18,070 bases of DNA from a virus (IMGVR_UViG_2660238548_000002:1-18070); one strand, 5' to 3'. Positions 3,671 through 16,053 are shown, counted from the first letter of the stretch. The notes: generated from the sequence alone by a model not told the origin. Translations and numbers: made by a program.

Positions 3671-3967
3671 TCACTCCTGTTCACTGGCCTCTTTGGCCAT
3701 CTTCAAATACTGTTCAGGGCAATGCGCCATAACGCGCTGAAACAGTTCCAGCGCCAGATTGCGTTGCCCCTCATTAAATGCCATTGCCATAGCGTCCATC
3801 GGCGAGATAGCGGAAAACACACGGCCTTTCTCCAGTACCGACCAGACAACCCGACGCCCCTGTTCACAGCTCATGACAAAGCGAATGTCATCAATTTCAC
3901 GCTGTGCCATGTCACGTTGCTTACGGGCGTTTTCTTCTTTCAGTTGATCGTCTTCGTAATCTGTCAT
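3671..3967 (-). CDS. Hypothetical small head-module protein (98 aa)
   Basis: ATG at 3967 overlaps the portal stop (ATGA); its own stop lies 2 nt before the scaffold ATG. Tightly coupled within the operon. Confidence 0.55.
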   Translation of the reverse strand: MTDYEDDQLKEENARKQRDMAQREIDDIRFVMSCEQGRRVVWSVLEKGRVFSAISPMDAMAMAFNEGQRNLALELFQRVMAHCPEQYLKMAKEASEQE

Positions 3968-5643
3968 TGTGATTGCCCACCCTGACCACTAACTGCATTC
4001 GCCATAGCTGACAAAACACTCGGATCCGAAGTTTTAGCTTCGCTTAGCGTCTTGGCCCCCTGTGCCGCCGCCATCCCCATCGCCATCATTTGTTGCTGCT
4101 GTTGCTGCTGTGCCCGTTGCTGGCGAGCCTGCTCAACCTGTTCCTGCGGAACAATGACGGTTGGAGACACTCCGGACATATCAGCGAATGCATCGATCGC
4201 CTGATCAACGTTGAGTTTGTCGAGAGCTTCTGGTTTCGCTTGCGCAAGTTGACCAATGAAGTTAACCGTGGACGCCAGACTGGACAGGCCGATAGACTTC
4301 TGCGCCTGAGCCATGACGGAAATGTATTCGACCTTCAGGGGCATGCCTTCCATCGCGTCAGGCGGTGGCGGCAGCATGTTTTTACGCACCATCATCGAGA
4401 AAGCGCGGTCAATGAGAGGATTAAGACATTCGTCGTTCAGACGCTCCAGAACCGGCCCCAACATCAGAAGTTTTTCTTCTTTCATTTCGATCACCGCTTC
4501 AACAGGCATCGAGCGGGTATTGATGTTCTGCAACATCATGAACAGATCGACAAAGTAGGCGCTGTTAATGATTTGACGAGTGTCCTGAATGTCTGCCACC
4601 AAATCTGCTGTACTGGGGTTAACCAGATAAGCAGGCCTGAAGCCATCCTGACCAGTAATCTGATCGATATACGTGATGTCGCCAGGAAGAAGGGAGGCGC
4701 GCTGATTCTTGAGGGAAGTCGGAGCAACCATCGGCGGATTGGTGGCTTTATCAATCAACTGCGACTTGCGCTTCTGGAGAAGCTGCAATGCCTTAACAGG
4801 TCCAAGCGCCAGCATGCCCGGGCATGATGATCCATAAACATCTTCACCGTTAACTTCCCAGCGCGGAGCCATAATTGGAAACTCATCGAATCCGGACTCA
4901 CGCAACAACTTGTCGTTATCGCCACCAACCTCGTAATAAACCGATTTGAATGGCTTGTTCTTGCTATCCAGCTTCGATGTATCGCGGTCAATGTTCGGGT
5001 AAACCGAATGCATCACGTCAATCCACTTCTCGTAGGTGCCGCTTTCCCACATGCTTTTTACGGATTCGCTGACGTTATTTAGCCCGAACTCCTGAACAAG
5101 CTGACGAACAGTCATAGAGAACTTGCGAAAACAGGTGTCAACACTGCCACGAGGTGAGTTAGCCAGGTAGTAACTGCCTATCGGGAATGGCATTGTGCGA
5201 ATGATGTCCTCATCATCCTCCAGTACCGCCATTGCACCGGTGCTGTATGTGCCGAGGCTTCCGTATAACTGCGGCAGCGACTGATAGAGATTCGACTTAT
5301 TGAACATATCGTTCATGCGGTTCTGCACCGCCTCAAGCCACAACTTAACAGGGCCATAATCCATCATTTCAGGATCTGGCGTAGCCAGGCGAAACCACGG
5401 ACGCGCAGGGCTTGTGATGCCTGACATCATGCCGCTGGCGAGAGTGCGCGCCGCCATAGTCCCGGTCGAATCAATAATGCGTGTATTGCGCCGATCGTTA
5501 CGGTTGGCCTCAGAAGTCAGAAAGCGGGAACCACGCGGGTTGATGTAATCACTCAACTCGCGCCAGTGCGGCTCGAACGACTGACGCTCGCTTTCAAGTT
5601 GTGCGAACTGTTTGTTCAATCGCTCTTTAGTTGTTTCCGCCAT
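3964..5643 (-). CDS. Portal protein, T7 gp8-like head-to-tail connector
   Basis: 559 aa. N-terminal region and the Gln/Ala/Met-rich C-terminal tail resemble recalled T7 gp8. Sits upstream of scaffold and capsid. Confidence 0.75.
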   Translation of the reverse strand: MAETTKERLNKQFAQLESERQSFEPHWRELSDYINPRGSRFLTSEANRNDRRNTRIIDSTGTMAARTLASGMMSGITSPARPWFRLATPDPEMMDYGPVKLWLEAVQNRMNDMFNKSNLYQSLPQLYGSLGTYSTGAMAVLEDDEDIIRTMPFPIGSYYLANSPRGSVDTCFRKFSMTVRQLVQEFGLNNVSESVKSMWESGTYEKWIDVMHSVYPNIDRDTSKLDSKNKPFKSVYYEVGGDNDKLLRESGFDEFPIMAPRWEVNGEDVYGSSCPGMLALGPVKALQLLQKRKSQLIDKATNPPMVAPTSLKNQRASLLPGDITYIDQITGQDGFRPAYLVNPSTADLVADIQDTRQIINSAYFVDLFMMLQNINTRSMPVEAVIEMKEEKLLMLGPVLERLNDECLNPLIDRAFSMMVRKNMLPPPPDAMEGMPLKVEYISVMAQAQKSIGLSSLASTVNFIGQLAQAKPEALDKLNVDQAIDAFADMSGVSPTVIVPQEQVEQARQQRAQQQQQQQMMAMGMAAAQGAKTLSEAKTSDPSVLSAMANAVSGQGGQSQ

Positions 5644-5657
5644 TTCAATGACTCCGG

Positions 5658-5864
5658 TTACTGACCAAGCAGCGTTTTACCGCTGGTATTAGCGGTTGAT
5701 GTGTCGCCCTGAGAACCGGTAAGAAGCGTAGAACTACGACCAGCAGCAGCGCGACGGCGACGTGTTTCTTCGTCGCGGGCATCAACAACGGCGGCATCCT
5801 GCTCCTGTGGTGCTGCCTGAACTTCTGGTGTTGCAGGCACTGATGGTGAGCTACCCATGCACAT
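5658..5864 (-). CDS. Small Ala/Gln/Arg-rich low-complexity protein (68 aa), possibly an internal virion protein
   Basis: ATG at 5864 with GGAG RBS; stop 12 nt before the portal RBS. Resemblance to T7 gp7.3 is from memory and weak. Confidence 0.4.
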   Translation of the reverse strand: MCMGSSPSVPATPEVQAAPQEQDAAVVDARDEETRRRRAAAGRSSTLLTGSQGDTSTANTSGKTLLGQ

Positions 5865-5932
5865 ATCAATGACTCCGTACGCAATTAAATTATTACCAAT
5901 TTAACCACAAATGATTTACCTATCGTAGATAG

Positions 5933-5969
5933 TTGACATTTAACGCACGAATTATTACCTTTCAGGTAA
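5933..5969 (+). promoter_or_regulatory. Candidate promoter (TTGACA at 5933..5938) with a perfect TTACC-N5-GGTAA palindrome at 5955..5969
   Basis: Perfect -35 hexamer, AT-rich -10 region, and a palindrome identical in form to those at the cI/cro region. Points toward the noncoding region and tRNA. Confidence 0.4.
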
Positions 5970-6029
5970 GCAAAGAGTTCATTCCGGTTATTAACCTGAC
6001 TAGCTTGTCGTTAAATTGAACAGGTGGGG

Positions 6030-6290
6030 TGAGATTTTATTTTGAGCAGTACGGCGTATGGCACATGCGCCGATAGCGGTCTGGATACGTTTAAGGGGCA
6101 CTCTCCCTTGCTCTGGCAAACGAACCAGGTAGCCGGGATGTGCAAGTCGAGCGGTTTTATTCCGCGCACGGGGATTCACCATCCCGGCGATTCGGTGTGA
6201 CACCTCGGAAGAGACGAGGGTACAACGATGAGAGCATTTATGGAACCGCGACAAAGTGTGGCGCCTTAACAGGCTAAGTGCTCTCAGCGT
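6030..6290 (+). ncRNA. Candidate structured noncoding RNA upstream of the tRNA (class unknown)
   Basis: No + strand ORF of 60 aa or more across 5885..6753. Contains a perfect 9-bp stem (GCCGGGATG 6131..6139 / CATCCCGGC 6180..6188) and several further hairpins. Confidence 0.25.
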
Positions 6291-6291
6291 T

Positions 6292-6368
6292 GTGGCATTA
6301 GCTCAGTTGGACAGAGCAACCGCCTTCTAAGCGGCTGGTCGCAGGTTCGAATCCTGCATGCCACGCCA
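6292..6368 (+). tRNA. tRNA-Arg (anticodon UCU), 77 nt with encoded CCA
   Basis: Manual fold: 7-bp acceptor stem GTGGCAT/ATGCCAC, D-arm GCTC...GAGC, anticodon loop CTTCTAA, T-arm GCAGG-TTCGAAT-CCTGC, discriminator G then CCA. Pair 27-43 is an A-C mismatch. Confidence 0.9.
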
Positions 6369-6411
6369 GAATCACGCCTAAGGACCGTGATGCCAGAAGT
6401 TCCAGGTGCTT

Positions 6412-6454
6412 GGCGGTGATGGTTTCCATTGAAGGACTATCACCGCCCTTTTTA
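6412..6454 (+). terminator. Intrinsic terminator downstream of the tRNA
   Basis: GGCGGTGAT ... ATCACCGCC stem followed by CTTTTTA. Confidence 0.5.
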
Positions 6455-6531
6455 CAGCAGGACGCCATTGCGATGACTTCATGCTGTAAACCCGTACAGC
6501 CACGGAAGGCATAACTCATTGCTTACAGTTC

Positions 6532-6555
6532 GCCCGGTTCACCGGGCATTTTTTT
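6532..6555 (+). terminator. Intrinsic terminator
   Basis: GCCCGG-TTCA-CCGGGC hairpin followed by ATTTTTTT. Confidence 0.7.
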
Positions 6556-6614
6556 AAGGTGTGAATCATGAAATACGAATTCGATGGATTTTAATGTCGT
6601 GACACGTCACAAAC

Positions 6615-6642
6615 AGCCAGCCGATAAGCTGGCTTTGTTTTA
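6615..6642 (+). terminator. Intrinsic terminator-like hairpin
   Basis: AGCCAGC-CGATAA-GCTGGCT followed by TTGTTTTA. Confidence 0.45.
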
Positions 6643-6697
6643 TCCTCATCAGAGGATATCAACGACATTATCCCCTCATAGGGATACGTTTTTCATA

Positions 6698-6726
6698 ATG
6701 ACCGAAGATTACCTTAAAGGTAGAAT
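6698..6726 (+). promoter_or_regulatory. Candidate promoter of the 246-aa gene (-10 TAGAAT at 6721..6726) overlapped by an operator-like palindrome TTACC-N5-GGTAG at 6709..6723
   Basis: -10 hexamer about 28 nt upstream of the ATG; a weak -35 (ATGACC) at 17-bp spacing; palindrome lies between them. Confidence 0.4.
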
Positions 6727-6753
6727 CAGAAAAAAACCTAAAAGGGCCTGGAC

Positions 6754-7494
6754 ATGCTTGAATCACTTAAAGAATACCTATCTTCAACCGTTAATACCGC
6801 TTCGCAAAGGGTCAGAAATCCAGTGTTTGGAGCGTTCGCACTGTCATGGTGCGCCTTTAACTGGAAGTCGATTTTATACTTACTCCTCAGCGACTCCAGC
6901 ATCATCGACAAGATCACCTACATTTCCAGCAATAGCAGTTGGAAAACGGTATTAGCATTCCCATGTGTTTCAGCAATAATCCTGTGCGGCGGCATGCCCT
7001 GGATCAACAACGTGATTTCAAAGTGGCAAGCCAAACCTCTTGATAATTACGATTCGATAGAGAACCACCGGAAGGCCAAGCGCATTCATCGCGCCACACG
7101 CCTGCAGCGCCTGAAGGCAAAGCACGATGTGACATACGACAAAGTTAAGACTGGCGCCGAAAAAGACATACAGGCTATGAAGGAAAGAATTACGGAGTCA
7201 CAGGCCAGGATGGGTGAGCTAACGTCGGAAAGAGATAGGCTCTCCGATAAGGTTTTGGAATTGAATAAGAAGCTGGAAAACATGCAATCAGTGGCTGCAG
7301 CGTTAAAGATTGAGGCAGAAAAGTCCGCCAGAATGCTTGAAGATAGGGAGGCCAAAATAAATAATCTCATACAAGAATTAAAGGAAAAAGAAAAGGAAAG
7401 TATCGTATTGCATATGGGCCATGAACCCTTGCGAAAAACATATACATCACAGGCTGAGAGAATGATTGCTGAAGCCGTGAAAAATAAGCAATAA
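6754..7494 (+). CDS. Orphan accessory protein: two predicted TM helices at the N-terminus, a basic linker and a long coiled-coil C-terminus (246 aa); function unknown
   Basis: Opposite strand to the late operon, visibly AT-rich, with many AGA/AGG Arg and ATA Ile codons. Its stop (7492..7494) lies 1 nt from the terL stop (7496..7498). Confidence 0.7.
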   Translation: MLESLKEYLSSTVNTASQRVRNPVFGAFALSWCAFNWKSILYLLLSDSSIIDKITYISSNSSWKTVLAFPCVSAIILCGGMPWINNVISKWQAKPLDNYDSIENHRKAKRIHRATRLQRLKAKHDVTYDKVKTGAEKDIQAMKERITESQARMGELTSERDRLSDKVLELNKKLENMQSVAAALKIEAEKSARMLEDREAKINNLIQELKEKEKESIVLHMGHEPLRKTYTSQAERMIAEAVKNKQ

Positions 7495-7495
7495 A

Positions 7496-8971
7496 TCACG
7501 CAAACGGGTCGTAATCTGTGATGGCCTTGCCTTGCTGGTTCTGCTGACCGGGAATTCGCAGGCGCTTCGACACAGGGAAAGCAAACGTCAGCAATAGCGC
7601 ATCGCCTTTCCCCGGCGAACGCCCAAGTCGTTCTTTGATATCTTCCTTCGGTTCGATAACGATTTTACCGTCCACGCGAACTTTGTACTCTGCCGTCGAC
7701 AGGTCGTCCGCTGTTTCCTGGTCATCCAGCATACCGCCCAGCCTCAGCCATGTCTTACATGAGTTGAACATCTCCCCACGCTTGTTGAGCATCTGCGGGT
7801 CAGTAGACGCGCCACCGAACGGAACAAGTTGCCATGTACGTCCCCAGCCATCACCGATTGACTTCAAACCGGTTCCGTAACCGAAGTCGATGAATACCGC
7901 GTCAGCCTGATACTTGTCTTCAAAGTCAGCGATGCGCTTCGCCATAATCAGATCGTCAGTGGTCTTGTTGCCAGTCCACAGCACCTTACTGTGCAGCCCC
8001 TGCCGCAGGTATATCACAGCGTCATCAACGCCGGAGTATGCCGGGTCAACGCCGATTATCACCGGAGCATGTGCCACCTGCGCAGCAGTTACCACCCGTT
8101 TCATTGCCTCGTCAGTAAGGCCGGTAGGGATAAACTGCAATTCAGATGCATCAGGGAATATGCCGCGCACACGGATTTTAACGAAGTCGCTGTCTTCCCC
8201 GTAGTCATCAACCCATTTCTGCAACTGCTGTTTGTTAGTGCCTTCCACCGTCCGGCTGTCAATCTGCGCAGTTTTCCAGCGGTGTTTATATTTGCGGAAA
8301 CATTCGCGGAAACGTCCGGTATTACGCGTCGGGTTTCCGAACGCCACCCAGATAATCTCAGTGTCTTCGTCCGTAAGCGCCCCCTCGGCAACTTCCCACA
8401 CCAGATCCGCAATGTTCGACGCTTCATCAAACACCACGATGATGCGTTTGCGCTCGTTGTGTAGTCCGGCGAATGCCTCGGTGTTGTGCTCAGACCAGGG
8501 GATTGCGTCAGCTCGCCACCGCTTGTCGTGCCCAGGATCATTGCTGTACATCGCGGTAGCGGTACAGGTAAACCAGTCTTTCGTGATAGCAAGGTTCGAC
8601 CACTTGATAATTTCCGGCCAGGTCTTCGTTCGTAGCTGGTTGTCGGTGTTGGCGGTCACCACGACCTTACAATCCTCGCAAGTGGACATGCCCCAGTTGA
8701 TCAGCATTGAGATGAATGCGGATTTACCAATACCGTGACCAGAAGCGCGTGCCAGCATAAGCGGCTGATAGCGCGTCTCTGGATTCTGCAGGTGATCACG
8801 TATCTCTCGGAACGCATCAGCCTGCCACTGACGTGGGCCGGTAGCATGTGCCAGTTCAGTCCCCTCTTCCCCCCAAGGGAACGCATAGAGGGCATAGCCA
8901 AGCGGATCGTGAGTGAACCCTGCAATATCCTCGATTAACTGCTCTTCAGGAGATAACGCTGTATCTGTCAC
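7496..8971 (-). CDS. Terminase large subunit
   Basis: 491 aa with Walker A-like SGHGIGKS near the N-terminus and a C-terminal nuclease-like region. GTG start overlaps the terS stop (GTGA); immediately downstream of terS. Confidence 0.85.
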   Translation of the reverse strand: MTDTALSPEEQLIEDIAGFTHDPLGYALYAFPWGEEGTELAHATGPRQWQADAFREIRDHLQNPETRYQPLMLARASGHGIGKSAFISMLINWGMSTCEDCKVVVTANTDNQLRTKTWPEIIKWSNLAITKDWFTCTATAMYSNDPGHDKRWRADAIPWSEHNTEAFAGLHNERKRIIVVFDEASNIADLVWEVAEGALTDEDTEIIWVAFGNPTRNTGRFRECFRKYKHRWKTAQIDSRTVEGTNKQQLQKWVDDYGEDSDFVKIRVRGIFPDASELQFIPTGLTDEAMKRVVTAAQVAHAPVIIGVDPAYSGVDDAVIYLRQGLHSKVLWTGNKTTDDLIMAKRIADFEDKYQADAVFIDFGYGTGLKSIGDGWGRTWQLVPFGGASTDPQMLNKRGEMFNSCKTWLRLGGMLDDQETADDLSTAEYKVRVDGKIVIEPKEDIKERLGRSPGKGDALLLTFAFPVSKRLRIPGQQNQQGKAITDYDPFA

Positions 8972-9564
8972 TGATTGCCATCCTGACGTTCTTTGAGTCG
9001 CTTCCTGGCTGCTGCTATGCGATCAGCAATTGTCACATTCACATTAACATCCAAGCGTTCTTTGAATGCGTTGACGTCGACGTGCTTACCAATCAGTTCG
9101 AGGTTCTTCACCTTGTCAGGCCATTTAATTTTTTTGAGGATTGTCTCTATCGAATCCTCGTTCATGTTCATGATGGTCGATGACAGATCAAAGCCGCTAA
9201 GCGTAGTGCGCCAGATTTTCGGCCACTCACGGATTGGTTTAAGGCTCCCATCGTCGTTGAGGATGTCGATCACGTCCATCTGGTCGATCTCCACTAGGCG
9301 CATGAGAACGTAATCAGCACTGACGCGCATTCGTTTGTTGCGCTCCTCCATCAACTCGGCAATCCGTTTTTGAATGCGTTCATCGCGCATCATGACACTG
9401 GCTTTAACTGCCGCTGTATTTGGGGAGAATCCTGCGTTAATCGCTGCCTGAGTCTGGTTTTCAGGCGTTTTGATGTATGACTGGCAATAAGCCTCCTGCA
9501 TTGCTGTGAGCGGCTTAAATTGCGTTGATTTGCGTTTATAGGTTTTAGGTTCAGCAGGCATCAT
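8968..9564 (-). CDS. Terminase small subunit
   Basis: Family-typical N-terminal LTAMQEAYCQSY...NAGFSPNTAAVKAS. Start placed at ATG 9564 (GGTGG upstream); the listed ORF's further extension (TITTTVTITT) runs through a terminator and repeats. Confidence 0.75.
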   Translation of the reverse strand: MMPAEPKTYKRKSTQFKPLTAMQEAYCQSYIKTPENQTQAAINAGFSPNTAAVKASVMMRDERIQKRIAELMEERNKRMRVSADYVLMRLVEIDQMDVIDILNDDGSLKPIREWPKIWRTTLSGFDLSSTIMNMNEDSIETILKKIKWPDKVKNLELIGKHVDVNAFKERLDVNVNVTIADRIAAARKRLKERQDGNQ

Positions 9565-9571
9565 AACCACC

Positions 9572-9602
9572 GTGGTAATAGTTACCGTTGTGGTAATAGT
9601 AA
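9572..9602. repeat. Two 13-bp direct repeats GTGGTAATAGT(T/A)A 18 bp apart, just upstream of the terS start
   Basis: Read directly from the sequence; the first copy forms the palindrome GGTAATAGTTACC. Candidate packaging or regulatory site. Confidence 0.5.
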
Positions 9603-9606
9603 CATG

Positions 9607-9633
9607 CAAAATAAAGCCGCCATAGTTGGCGGC
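9607..9633 (-). terminator. Intrinsic terminator immediately upstream of terS
   Basis: On the minus strand: GCCGCCA-ACTA-TGGCGGC followed by TTTATTTTG, in the 75-bp gap between the 70-aa gene and terS. Confidence 0.65.
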
Positions 9634-9638
9634 AGTAT

Positions 9639-9851
9639 TCAAAGTCCATCAAATTCATCGTAAAAACTCTCGTCAAGATACCCTTCCCATTTACCGCGAA
9701 TGAAAATTACATCCTCGCCGCAAGGGTGCTGACTGTCGATAACTATATCCCTCCTGGCGCAACCATACTTATGCATGAGAAATTTAACCTCTTTCGGAAA
9801 ATTTGCTGAGTTATCTCTCATATCTTCAAGGTCGTAGCGTATTTTTGGCAT
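9639..9851 (-). CDS. Hypothetical small protein (70 aa)
   Basis: ATG at 9851 with GAGGTG RBS directly upstream; the listed ORF extends to 9866. Confidence 0.5.
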   Translation of the reverse strand: MPKIRYDLEDMRDNSANFPKEVKFLMHKYGCARRDIVIDSQHPCGEDVIFIRGKWEGYLDESFYDEFDGL

Positions 9852-15468: not shown

Positions 15469-16053
15469 ATGAAAAGTATCCAGGACGTCCGCAGGCAAAA
15501 TCTCAACGACTTGATCGACCGTGAATTCAATGGTGTTCAGACGCGGATGGCAGAAAAACTTGGAACTCAGGCAAATCTGGTAAACCGCTGGGCTCTTGGC
15601 AAGAAGGTTATCGGCGACCAGGTTGCGCGAAAAATTGAAGCTGCCGCCAATAAACCCCGTAACTGGCTTGATATCGATCGCTCGCTTTCTCAGGAGGGGT
15701 TTCAGCCTGTCGGCCCAAGCGACATTGGTCAGCTGGCGGCTCACAACCTGGAACGCTGGATGAGCGAAAGCCGCGACCTTTCAACACAGGGAAAACTTCA
15801 CCGCGCATCCGGCGTCGCCCAGGTGACAATCAGCCGCCTGTTAAACAATGAGGTCAGTGTTTCCATTTCCACCCTGGAGAATGTTGCATCCGCATTCGGG
15901 CGTCACGGATATGAACTACTGATTCACCCGCACGACCCTGCGACTATCAACTATGACCGCTCGCGCTACGCATTGTTACCCGAAACCGAGAAAGCAAAGA
16001 TCGAAAGTTACATTGAATTTGTCATCAACCAGAACGAAAAAAACAAACAATAA
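15469..16053 (+). CDS. CI-like repressor with two HTH (XRE-type) domains and no S24 peptidase domain (194 aa)
   Basis: Two HTH-like segments (residues about 20..60 and 95..150). Divergent from cro and followed by a strong terminator. Confidence 0.65.
   Translation: MKSIQDVRRQNLNDLIDREFNGVQTRMAEKLGTQANLVNRWALGKKVIGDQVARKIEAAANKPRNWLDIDRSLSQEGFQPVGPSDIGQLAAHNLERWMSESRDLSTQGKLHRASGVAQVTISRLLNNEVSVSISTLENVASAFGRHGYELLIHPHDPATINYDRSRYALLPETEKAKIESYIEFVINQNEKNKQ

Follow-up and report, generated by a model that had tools for sequence, protein, structure and literature searches.

What is a tRNA-Arg gene with anticodon UCU doing between the terminase and portal genes of a prophage, and is it there for the sake of the accessory gene that follows it? 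The stretch of DNA analysed here, hereafter the window, comprises 18,070 nt and is, to judge from its sequence, a phiV10/epsilon15-like (Uetakevirus) podovirus prophage of E. coli, in which the cro-like gene, the replication genes, both terminase genes, a small gene, the portal gene and the capsid genes lie on the minus strand. The tRNA gene and a gene for a protein of 246 aa lie on the plus strand between the terminase and portal genes, the tRNA together with the leader RNA that precedes it being directed opposite to the terminase, portal and capsid genes. An earlier note on this DNA had taken the tRNA and the 246-aa gene for a co-acquired cassette, in which the tRNA would support the translation of a cargo rich in rare codons. 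The genes that define the setting are:

3964-5643, minus strand: portal gene
5658-5864, minus strand: small gene upstream of the portal gene
6292-6368, plus strand: tRNA-Arg(UCU) of the argU family, with encoded CCA and C at 6335 (ARAGORN, Rfam, alignments)
6568-7495: hypervariable cargo slot, from the tRNA unit to the large terminase stop codon (homology break; differing genes in relatives)
6754-7494, plus strand: 246-aa cargo gene, phrog_4780, its product hydrophobic in the N-terminal part and forming a long coiled coil in the C-terminal part
7496-8971, minus strand: large terminase gene
8968-9642, minus strand: small terminase gene
15469-16053: HTH repressor gene

We think it fairly probable that positions 5933-6555 constitute a self-contained plus-strand transcription unit, composed of an operator-bearing promoter, a leader RNA, the tRNA and two terminators, which would be under the control of the phage repressor and whose tRNA would supplement the decoding of AGA (and AGG), the 246-aa gene being a separate cargo. 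The finding of a phage tRNA-Arg(UCU) is in itself ordinary, such phage-borne genes being textbook accessories, and its tie to the neighbouring gene is corrected below. Less ordinary is the leader, an unannotated multi-helix RNA supported by covariation and without an Rfam family, in E. coli and P1, both of them well studied.

The tRNA is the sole one that ARAGORN calls in the window (tRNA-Arg, anticodon tct, 6292-6368, plus strand), and the Rfam model RF00005 matches it with 68.9 bits (E 1.8e-13, gathering score 29), flagging 27-43 as a non-standard pair, such that the earlier description of an intact tRNA-Arg with anticodon UCU is upheld. The 3' CCA is encoded, and A20, C35 and U36, the identity elements for ArgRS, can be read in the sequence; these features, together with the discriminator G73, the anticodon loop CUUCUAA and the T arm, are shared with E. 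coli argU, the rare decoder of AGA/AGG, from which the D arm differs solely at D-loop position 21. The acceptor stem, in contrast, reads GUGGCAU/AUGCCAC where argU has GCGCCCU/AGGGCGC, and the anticodon stem is altered by compensatory changes. Overall 63 of 77 aligned positions are identical, most of the remainder being compensatory changes in stems, which agrees with the earlier statement that this is not a copy of the host argU. Among 52 copies from phages of E. coli, Klebsiella and Salmonella the acceptor and anticodon stems exhibit two-sided changes and G-U wobbles, and the tRNA-Arg identity elements, the anticodon and the encoded CCA are kept across the genera; stems maintained in this manner point to a functional gene.

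The tRNA-Arg is also an already known, long-annotated and lineage-wide feature of phiV10/epsilon15-like prophages. It is annotated in phiv142-3, in O157 typing phages 9 and 10, in SPC32H and in RefSeq E. coli genomes, and the same gene is found at the same position in phiV10, phiv142-3, O157 typing phages 9 and 10, SPN9TCW and SPC32H, with 97-99% identity within the phages of E. coli. What sets the window apart from these relatives is C in place of T at tRNA position 43, together with a less common cargo gene past the tRNA. The argO and argN genes of Stx-converting lambdoid phages (about 81-83% match over the core) likewise represent rare-codon tRNA-Arg genes borne by temperate phages of E. 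coli, but they differ in genomic position and neighbours, being situated upstream of stx in the late region, and we know of no structured leader of the window's kind for them. The close relative vB_EcoP_ZX5 is reported to have one tRNA, an attP beside the integrase and, like phiV10 and epsilon15, an attB at the 3' end of guaA (PMC9782041). Because phages of the Uetakevirus type integrate at guaA, and because virion genomes have the tRNA in their interior, with the portal and terminase genes on either side, the gene is not the remnant of an attachment site. Unlike argU, which lies at a chromosomal prophage attachment site, it resides inside the phage genome, behind a structured leader RNA.

The elements of the putative unit, and the promoter-like site of the cargo gene beyond it, are:

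5933-5961, plus strand: candidate sigma-70 promoter of the leader-tRNA unit, with -35 TTGACA (5933-5938), a 17-nt spacer and a weak -10 TACCTT (5956-5961)
5955-5969, unstranded: operator-like palindrome TTACC-N5-GGTAA, a perfect copy, over the -10 hexamer and the transcription start
6052-6219, plus strand: 5' domain of the leader RNA, with helices P1, P2, P3/P3b and P4 and two candidate pseudoknots (covariance model, covariation)
6221-6294, plus strand: closing helix P5 with a variable insert, its 3' strand UUGUG (6290-6294) overlapping tRNA G1-G3 (RNAalifold)
6412-6455, plus strand: intrinsic terminator 1, a 14-bp stem followed by a U-run (terminator scan)
6532-6555, plus strand: intrinsic terminator 2, GCCCGG-TTCA-CCGGGC followed by a T-run (terminator scan, relatives)
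6698-6726, plus strand: promoter-like site of the 246-aa gene, with -35 ATGACC, a 17-nt spacer and -10 TAGAAT (promoter scan)

The roughly 430 nt upstream of the tRNA are non-coding and, in phages of E. coli, Klebsiella and Salmonella, are made up of invariant blocks between variable stretches bearing indels. Within this region the whole leader RNA spans 6052-6294 (about 240 nt, five helices) on the plus strand, which the many G-U pairs identify as the RNA strand. For 37 non-redundant sequences RNAalifold predicts 47 pairs, 17 of them with compensatory changes, and for P5 it pairs columns 219-238 with columns 348-391, with several compensatory changes. A covariance model of the 5' domain only (R1) scores 139 bits on the 5' domain of the window. 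When the 5' domain is considered in alignment A4, 99% of cells are paired, as against 30-43% with the partners slid, and 11 pairs have changed on both sides as against 4.3 in shuffles, a count reached by 0 of 500 shuffles. An independent set drawn from the genomes of 23 enterobacterial species with a different anchor, and confirmed by R1, again has 99% of cells paired, with 11 of 24 pairs changed on both sides. The structure of the leader is thus well supported by covariation in two separately anchored alignments.

Individual elements behave similarly. The candidate pseudoknot between CACC (6177-6180) and GGUG (6194-6197) has undergone a double change from C-G to A-U in Stx2a_1447 and mEp460, and hairpin P4 retains a constant loop, GAAGAG(A/U), on a stem that has changed in P1 and a Stx phage. 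Comparison of Rfam 15 with positions 5860-6760 gave, the tRNA aside, no match at E<=5, and with the whole window no match at gathering scores. A reading of UGCUCUUU..GUUGUGG as boxA and boxC elements of the rrn type was discarded, both segments being paired in a covarying helix and the window having UGCUCUC. The variable insert of the leader often contains hairpins resembling a T arm (CUGGUUCAAUUCCAG or AGGUUCGAUUCCUUU), for example in the P5 inserts of SPC32H (L006), L095 and Stx2a_1447 (L129), and in some loci lacking the tRNA (L050, L111) GUUGUGG is followed by a sequence resembling a D arm, GGUUAGCUCAGG..GGUUAGAGC. ARAGORN called no tRNA at these T-arm-like or D-arm-like sequences, and at 85% thresholds it found only unconvincing matches in the sequence 3' of the leader in tRNA-less loci. 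Extra P5-like units (CAAC, a long helix, GUUGUGG) flank the leader on its upstream or downstream side in some phages, namely in mEp460 (L128, 3380-3520), in BUCT711 (L003, about 2080-2170) and in L014.

Leader and tRNA are contiguous to the point of overlap. The leader ends with UUGUG at 6290-6294 and the first nucleotide of the tRNA is 6292, leaving no gap; the junction, CGTT directly followed by GTGGCATT, is identical in all 28 distinct tRNA-bearing units, throughout which the 5' strand of P5 stays complementary to tRNA G1-G3. Copies of the leader without a tRNA have the same GUUGUGG end and then unrelated sequence. Since the tRNA begins inside the last helix of the leader, it is transcribable only from a promoter upstream of 6052, and since there is no room for a promoter of its own, it must be co-transcribed with the leader.

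The promoter of the leader-tRNA unit would be the candidate site at 5933-5961. Its -10 is weak and the site falls below the threshold of the promoter scan; its hexamers are invariant, and its spacer variable, among relatives from E. coli, Klebsiella and Salmonella, and in other phages clear promoters are found just upstream of the leader RNA. At the other end, terminator 1 is kept as a hairpin in the Klebsiella and Salmonella relatives while the sequence of its stem has changed. The palindrome that covers the -10 hexamer, TTACC-N5-GGTAA, has ten matches in the window against 0.28 expected (at 5955, 6709, 9564, 9582, 13006, 13068, 15351, 15399, 16111 and 16173), and in relatives its half-sites are invariant and its spacer variable. 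The pairs 15351/15399 and 16111/16173 flank the HTH repressor gene, one pair lying between the cro-like and HTH genes and the other just downstream of the HTH gene, and two further palindromes closely precede the start codon that the small terminase gene probably uses. The copy at 6709-6723, with one mismatch, covers the -10 of the promoter-like site of the 246-aa gene, and the EC.W1-9 homologue has a perfect TTACCTTGAAGGTAA at the same place.

From this distribution we infer that the phage repressor binds TTACC-N5-GGTAA and would, in the lysogen, silence both the leader-tRNA unit and the 246-aa gene, both of which would then fire early on induction. As the same operator-like palindrome is present at both promoters, the unit and the 246-aa gene may be expressed simultaneously. 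By analogy with the dispersed regulon of the C1 repressor of phage P1, the scattered sites suggest that the Uetakevirus repressor may control many dispersed promoters.

The leader extends well beyond this lineage. A scan of viral contigs with one invariant leader block yielded 119 loci, to which five were added to give 124, and 84 of these are of Uetakevirus type; at the others the leader is located just downstream of sigma-70 promoters with lambda-like operators. Among 5426 complete E. coli genomes, 1834 contain the 5' domain of the leader by blastn, in 1913 chromosomal and 554 plasmid places. In phage P1 it lies between trnI and ban, within the C1-controlled ban operon; in mEp460, Stx2a_1447 and phiSTEC1575-Stx2k it immediately follows the gene for the cI-type repressor and opens the leftward early operon; and it also occupies the PL position of e14/SfV-type lambdoid and Stx phages. 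With R1 we find one copy per window or locus and, in E. coli K-12, no copy in the 10 kb of the e14 left end and immunity region or in 2.5 kb at argU; by eye, the ymfK-ymfJ intergenic region of e14 contains a promoter and no leader copy. A terminator-like hairpin occurs within 700 nt downstream of the leader at 115 of 129 loci, compared with 58 of 129 on the antisense side. The leader region is annotated in no record, and no description of the RNA was found in the literature searched, the coverage of which was partial.

Several details of these loci may be recorded alongside. In mEp460 a strong terminator is situated about 170 nt past the leader, ahead of the first early gene. P1-type elements (P1 itself, L127, and L152) have trnI, a tRNA-Ile2 with anticodon CAT, 15 nt upstream of the leader, and in Phytobacter ursingii prophages (L141, L163) a tRNA-Ile lies about 450 nt downstream of it. 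Two annotated antisense ORFs are probably spurious, PhiV10p04 across the tRNA (3699-3950 of L002) and mEp460 gp37 across the leader (2943-3311 of L128).

Of known elements, the put RNA of HK022 and nutL of lambda, with N, come closest in position: in lambdoid phages the leader is found downstream of the repressor gene and operators, heading the leftward early operon, with a terminator after it. More generally, as expected of a put-like element, it closely follows early promoters and precedes terminators. At about 150-170 nt for its 5' domain the leader is, however, far larger; it folds into several helices with pseudoknots, is single-copy per phage rather than present twice, and occurs also in the P1 ban operon and in the cargo slot of Uetakevirus. 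The compact two-stem-loop element in both early operons that typifies put was not found at these loci, which have one copy with five helices and pseudoknots. Whether the leader is an undescribed family of structured, pseudoknotted RNA that heads repressor-controlled early transcripts in enterobacterial temperate phages, present in about one third of complete E. coli genomes, seems to us an evenly balanced question. Such an RNA could act in cis, by controlling elongation or termination of the early transcript or by stabilising RNA; alternatively it could be a stable early RNA acting in trans, set free, for instance, through RNase P cleavage at the tRNA junction. Were the leader to control early transcription, or to be a stable early RNA, this would add a new regulatory layer to the induction of common prophages, including the Stx-converting ones.

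The tRNA could chiefly be a processing module, RNase P cleavage at its 5' side setting the 3' end of a leader that is the real product. RNase P processing of the phage regulatory RNAs C4 of P1 and CI of P4 provides a precedent. The last helix of the leader overlaps tRNA G1-G3 at an invariant junction, the leader is far more widely spread than the tRNA and occurs without it in 26 of 72 Uetakevirus loci, in lambdoid phages and in P1, and tRNAs of other specificities adjoin it in P1 and in Phytobacter prophages. Against this, the full set of tRNA-Arg identity elements, the anticodon and the CCA are kept across genera, which would be needless for a mere cleavage signal; as an account of what the tRNA is mainly for we judge it unlikely, noting that processing and decoding are compatible roles.

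The reading that we favour, a repressor-controlled unit with a decoding tRNA, can be put as a sequence of steps. The unit would run from a promoter with the palindrome over its -10, through the pseudoknotted leader of about 240 nt and the tRNA-Arg(UCU), to two intrinsic terminators; the repressor would silence it in the lysogen and release it on induction or infection; RNase P would free the tRNA from the leader; and the tRNA would supplement the scarce host decoder of AGA (and AGG) during the translation of early and accessory genes rich in AGA/AGG, codons of which the late genes make hardly any use. The 246-aa gene would be expressed from its own operator-bearing promoter.

Codon use within the window is in keeping with such a role. 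The 246-aa gene contains five AGA and four AGG among its 15 Arg codons, or 36.6 per 1000 codons, compared with 3.1 per 1000 in the late genes (Fisher p = 3e-6) and 17.8 per 1000 in the early genes (p = 0.05), five of which reach 30-40 per 1000. The enrichment that had been claimed for the 246-aa gene is therefore real relative to the late genes and not unique to it. Both this gene and the early genes exceed the late genes in AGA/AGG, as expected where a tRNA compensates for codon use. Among relatives, the presence of the tRNA does not track codon usage, whether in the cargo ORFs of related loci (18.8 AGA/AGG per 1000 in tRNA-less loci vs 12.9 in tRNA-bearing ones) or in the early genes of the tRNA-less relative Tyrion (16.5 per 1000 vs 17.8 in the window). 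Since 26 of 72 related loci are without the tRNA and Tyrion has the same AGA/AGG load, any translational benefit is dispensable, and it must be modest, because about one third of the relatives do without the tRNA and their codon use is unchanged.

That tRNA presence does not follow codon usage weakens a simple idea of codon supply, and it lends something to the proposal that the tRNA is mainly a counter-measure, which would stand in for host tRNA-Arg lost in the course of infection through cleavage or depletion, anticodon nucleases such as those of the colicin D type being one conceivable agent. The notion of phage tRNAs resistant to host nucleases is well established, and the anticodon and acceptor stems of this one differ from those of argU around an identical anticodon loop. 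It is, however, that same loop which known nucleases recognise, the locus has no linked gene for a nuclease or for defence, and the proposal, being speculative, appears to us quite improbable.

There is also the A27-C43 mismatch to consider. Position 43 (6335) is C in the window and T in all 51 other copies, a near-identical prophage with the same 246-aa gene among them. The mismatch reported earlier is thus present, and it is not a feature of the lineage; given T43 in every other copy, it is either a private substitution of the window genome or a sequencing error. It may weaken the window's copy of the tRNA. That this copy is impaired or decaying through the mismatch, as the uniqueness of C43 among 52 copies might suggest, is nonetheless very improbable, the change being a single mismatch at the top of the anticodon stem of a tRNA that still scores 68.9 bits with Rfam, and possibly a sequencing error.

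There remains the relation of the tRNA unit to the gene downstream. The 246-aa ORF, an annotated CDS in a 99%-identical E. coli prophage (RefSeq), begins 385 nt past the tRNA and, as the earlier note had it, on the same strand; the interval contains four terminator-like hairpins (6412-6447, 6532-6547, 6615-6634 and 6669-6686) in addition to the promoter-like site at 6698-6726. Homology with phiV10-like phages stops at 6568-6677 and restarts in the terminase gene; relatives carry various genes in this slot, phiV10 for instance an unrelated 123-aa gene, and the 246-aa gene is found at the DNA level in five of 5426 complete E. coli genomes. The slot is complete in 72 related loci: the tRNA is accompanied by a homologue of the gene in 13 of them and is present alone in 33, 25 contain neither and one contains just the homologue. 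The tRNA is thus at its fixed position in 46 of 72 loci, beside many different neighbours, and homologues stand next to it in 13 of 14 Uetakevirus cases (Fisher p = 0.013, with shared ancestry not corrected for).

The protein belongs to family phrog_4780 of PHROGs, of which the 120 homologues listed among 204 are all from Enterobacteriaceae and those named, among the matches listed, are hypothetical, DUF3450-domain or coiled-coil proteins. The family is present also in lambdoid prophages, between the replication and nin genes and on the opposite strand, where its genes have 36-42% GC and 15-25 AGA/AGG per 1000, with no tRNA within 3.5 kb. Co-occurrence of tRNA and gene within shared boundaries was found neither in the related loci nor in the lambdoid prophages. 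We take the 246-aa gene to be a separate, independently mobile and AT-rich cargo, whose rare codons would be a trait of its family and not a consequence of the tRNA.

The proposal that tRNA and gene were acquired together as a cassette, the tRNA existing to translate the rare-codon cargo, can point to AGA/AGG at nine of 15 Arg codons, to the above association of homologues with the tRNA and to the same operator-like site at both promoters, but it is already contradicted and scarcely tenable, given that 33 of 46 tRNA-bearing loci have other cargo, that homology with close relatives breaks between tRNA and gene, that the family occurs with the same codon bias and without a tRNA in lambdoid prophages, that terminator-like hairpins and a separate promoter-like site intervene, and that cargo in tRNA-less loci is the richer in AGA/AGG.

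As to the cargo protein itself, hydrophobicity is strongest at residues 63-85 and the coiled coil covers 134-220. Searches of Pfam returned only coiled-coil noise (PEARLI-4 at 23 bits, below the cut-off), as did PADLOC (coiled-coil segments of LmuB/JetC), and an AlphaFold model is all-helical and poor (pTM 0.29). Our guess, held with low confidence, is an accessory protein anchored in the membrane, of the kind that acts in superinfection exclusion or abortive infection. An ORF of 123 aa at 6584-6955 was rejected as a gene on account of its low-complexity, implausible content and its overlap with the annotated 246-aa gene, its match in length to phiV10 p03 being a coincidence. Only 1 nt separates the ends of the 246-aa gene and of the large terminase gene, which converge (7492-7498), and no terminator lies in between; at the equivalent position phiV10 has one annotated.

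Two minor observations concern the neighbouring minus-strand genes. The small terminase ORF probably starts further downstream than its TTG codon at 9642 (9561-9642, minus strand): the Pfam domain starts only at residue 44, the small terminase of EC.W1-9 is annotated 27 residues shorter than the window ORF, and two operator-like sites lie within the first 27 codons. Finally, between the small gene and the leader promoter, a block at 5885-5930, TTAAATTATTACCAATTTAACCACA.ATGATTTA..TATCGTAG, is nearly invariant across phages of E. coli, Klebsiella and Salmonella and may serve the minus-strand head genes as a late promoter or as the site of a regulator.
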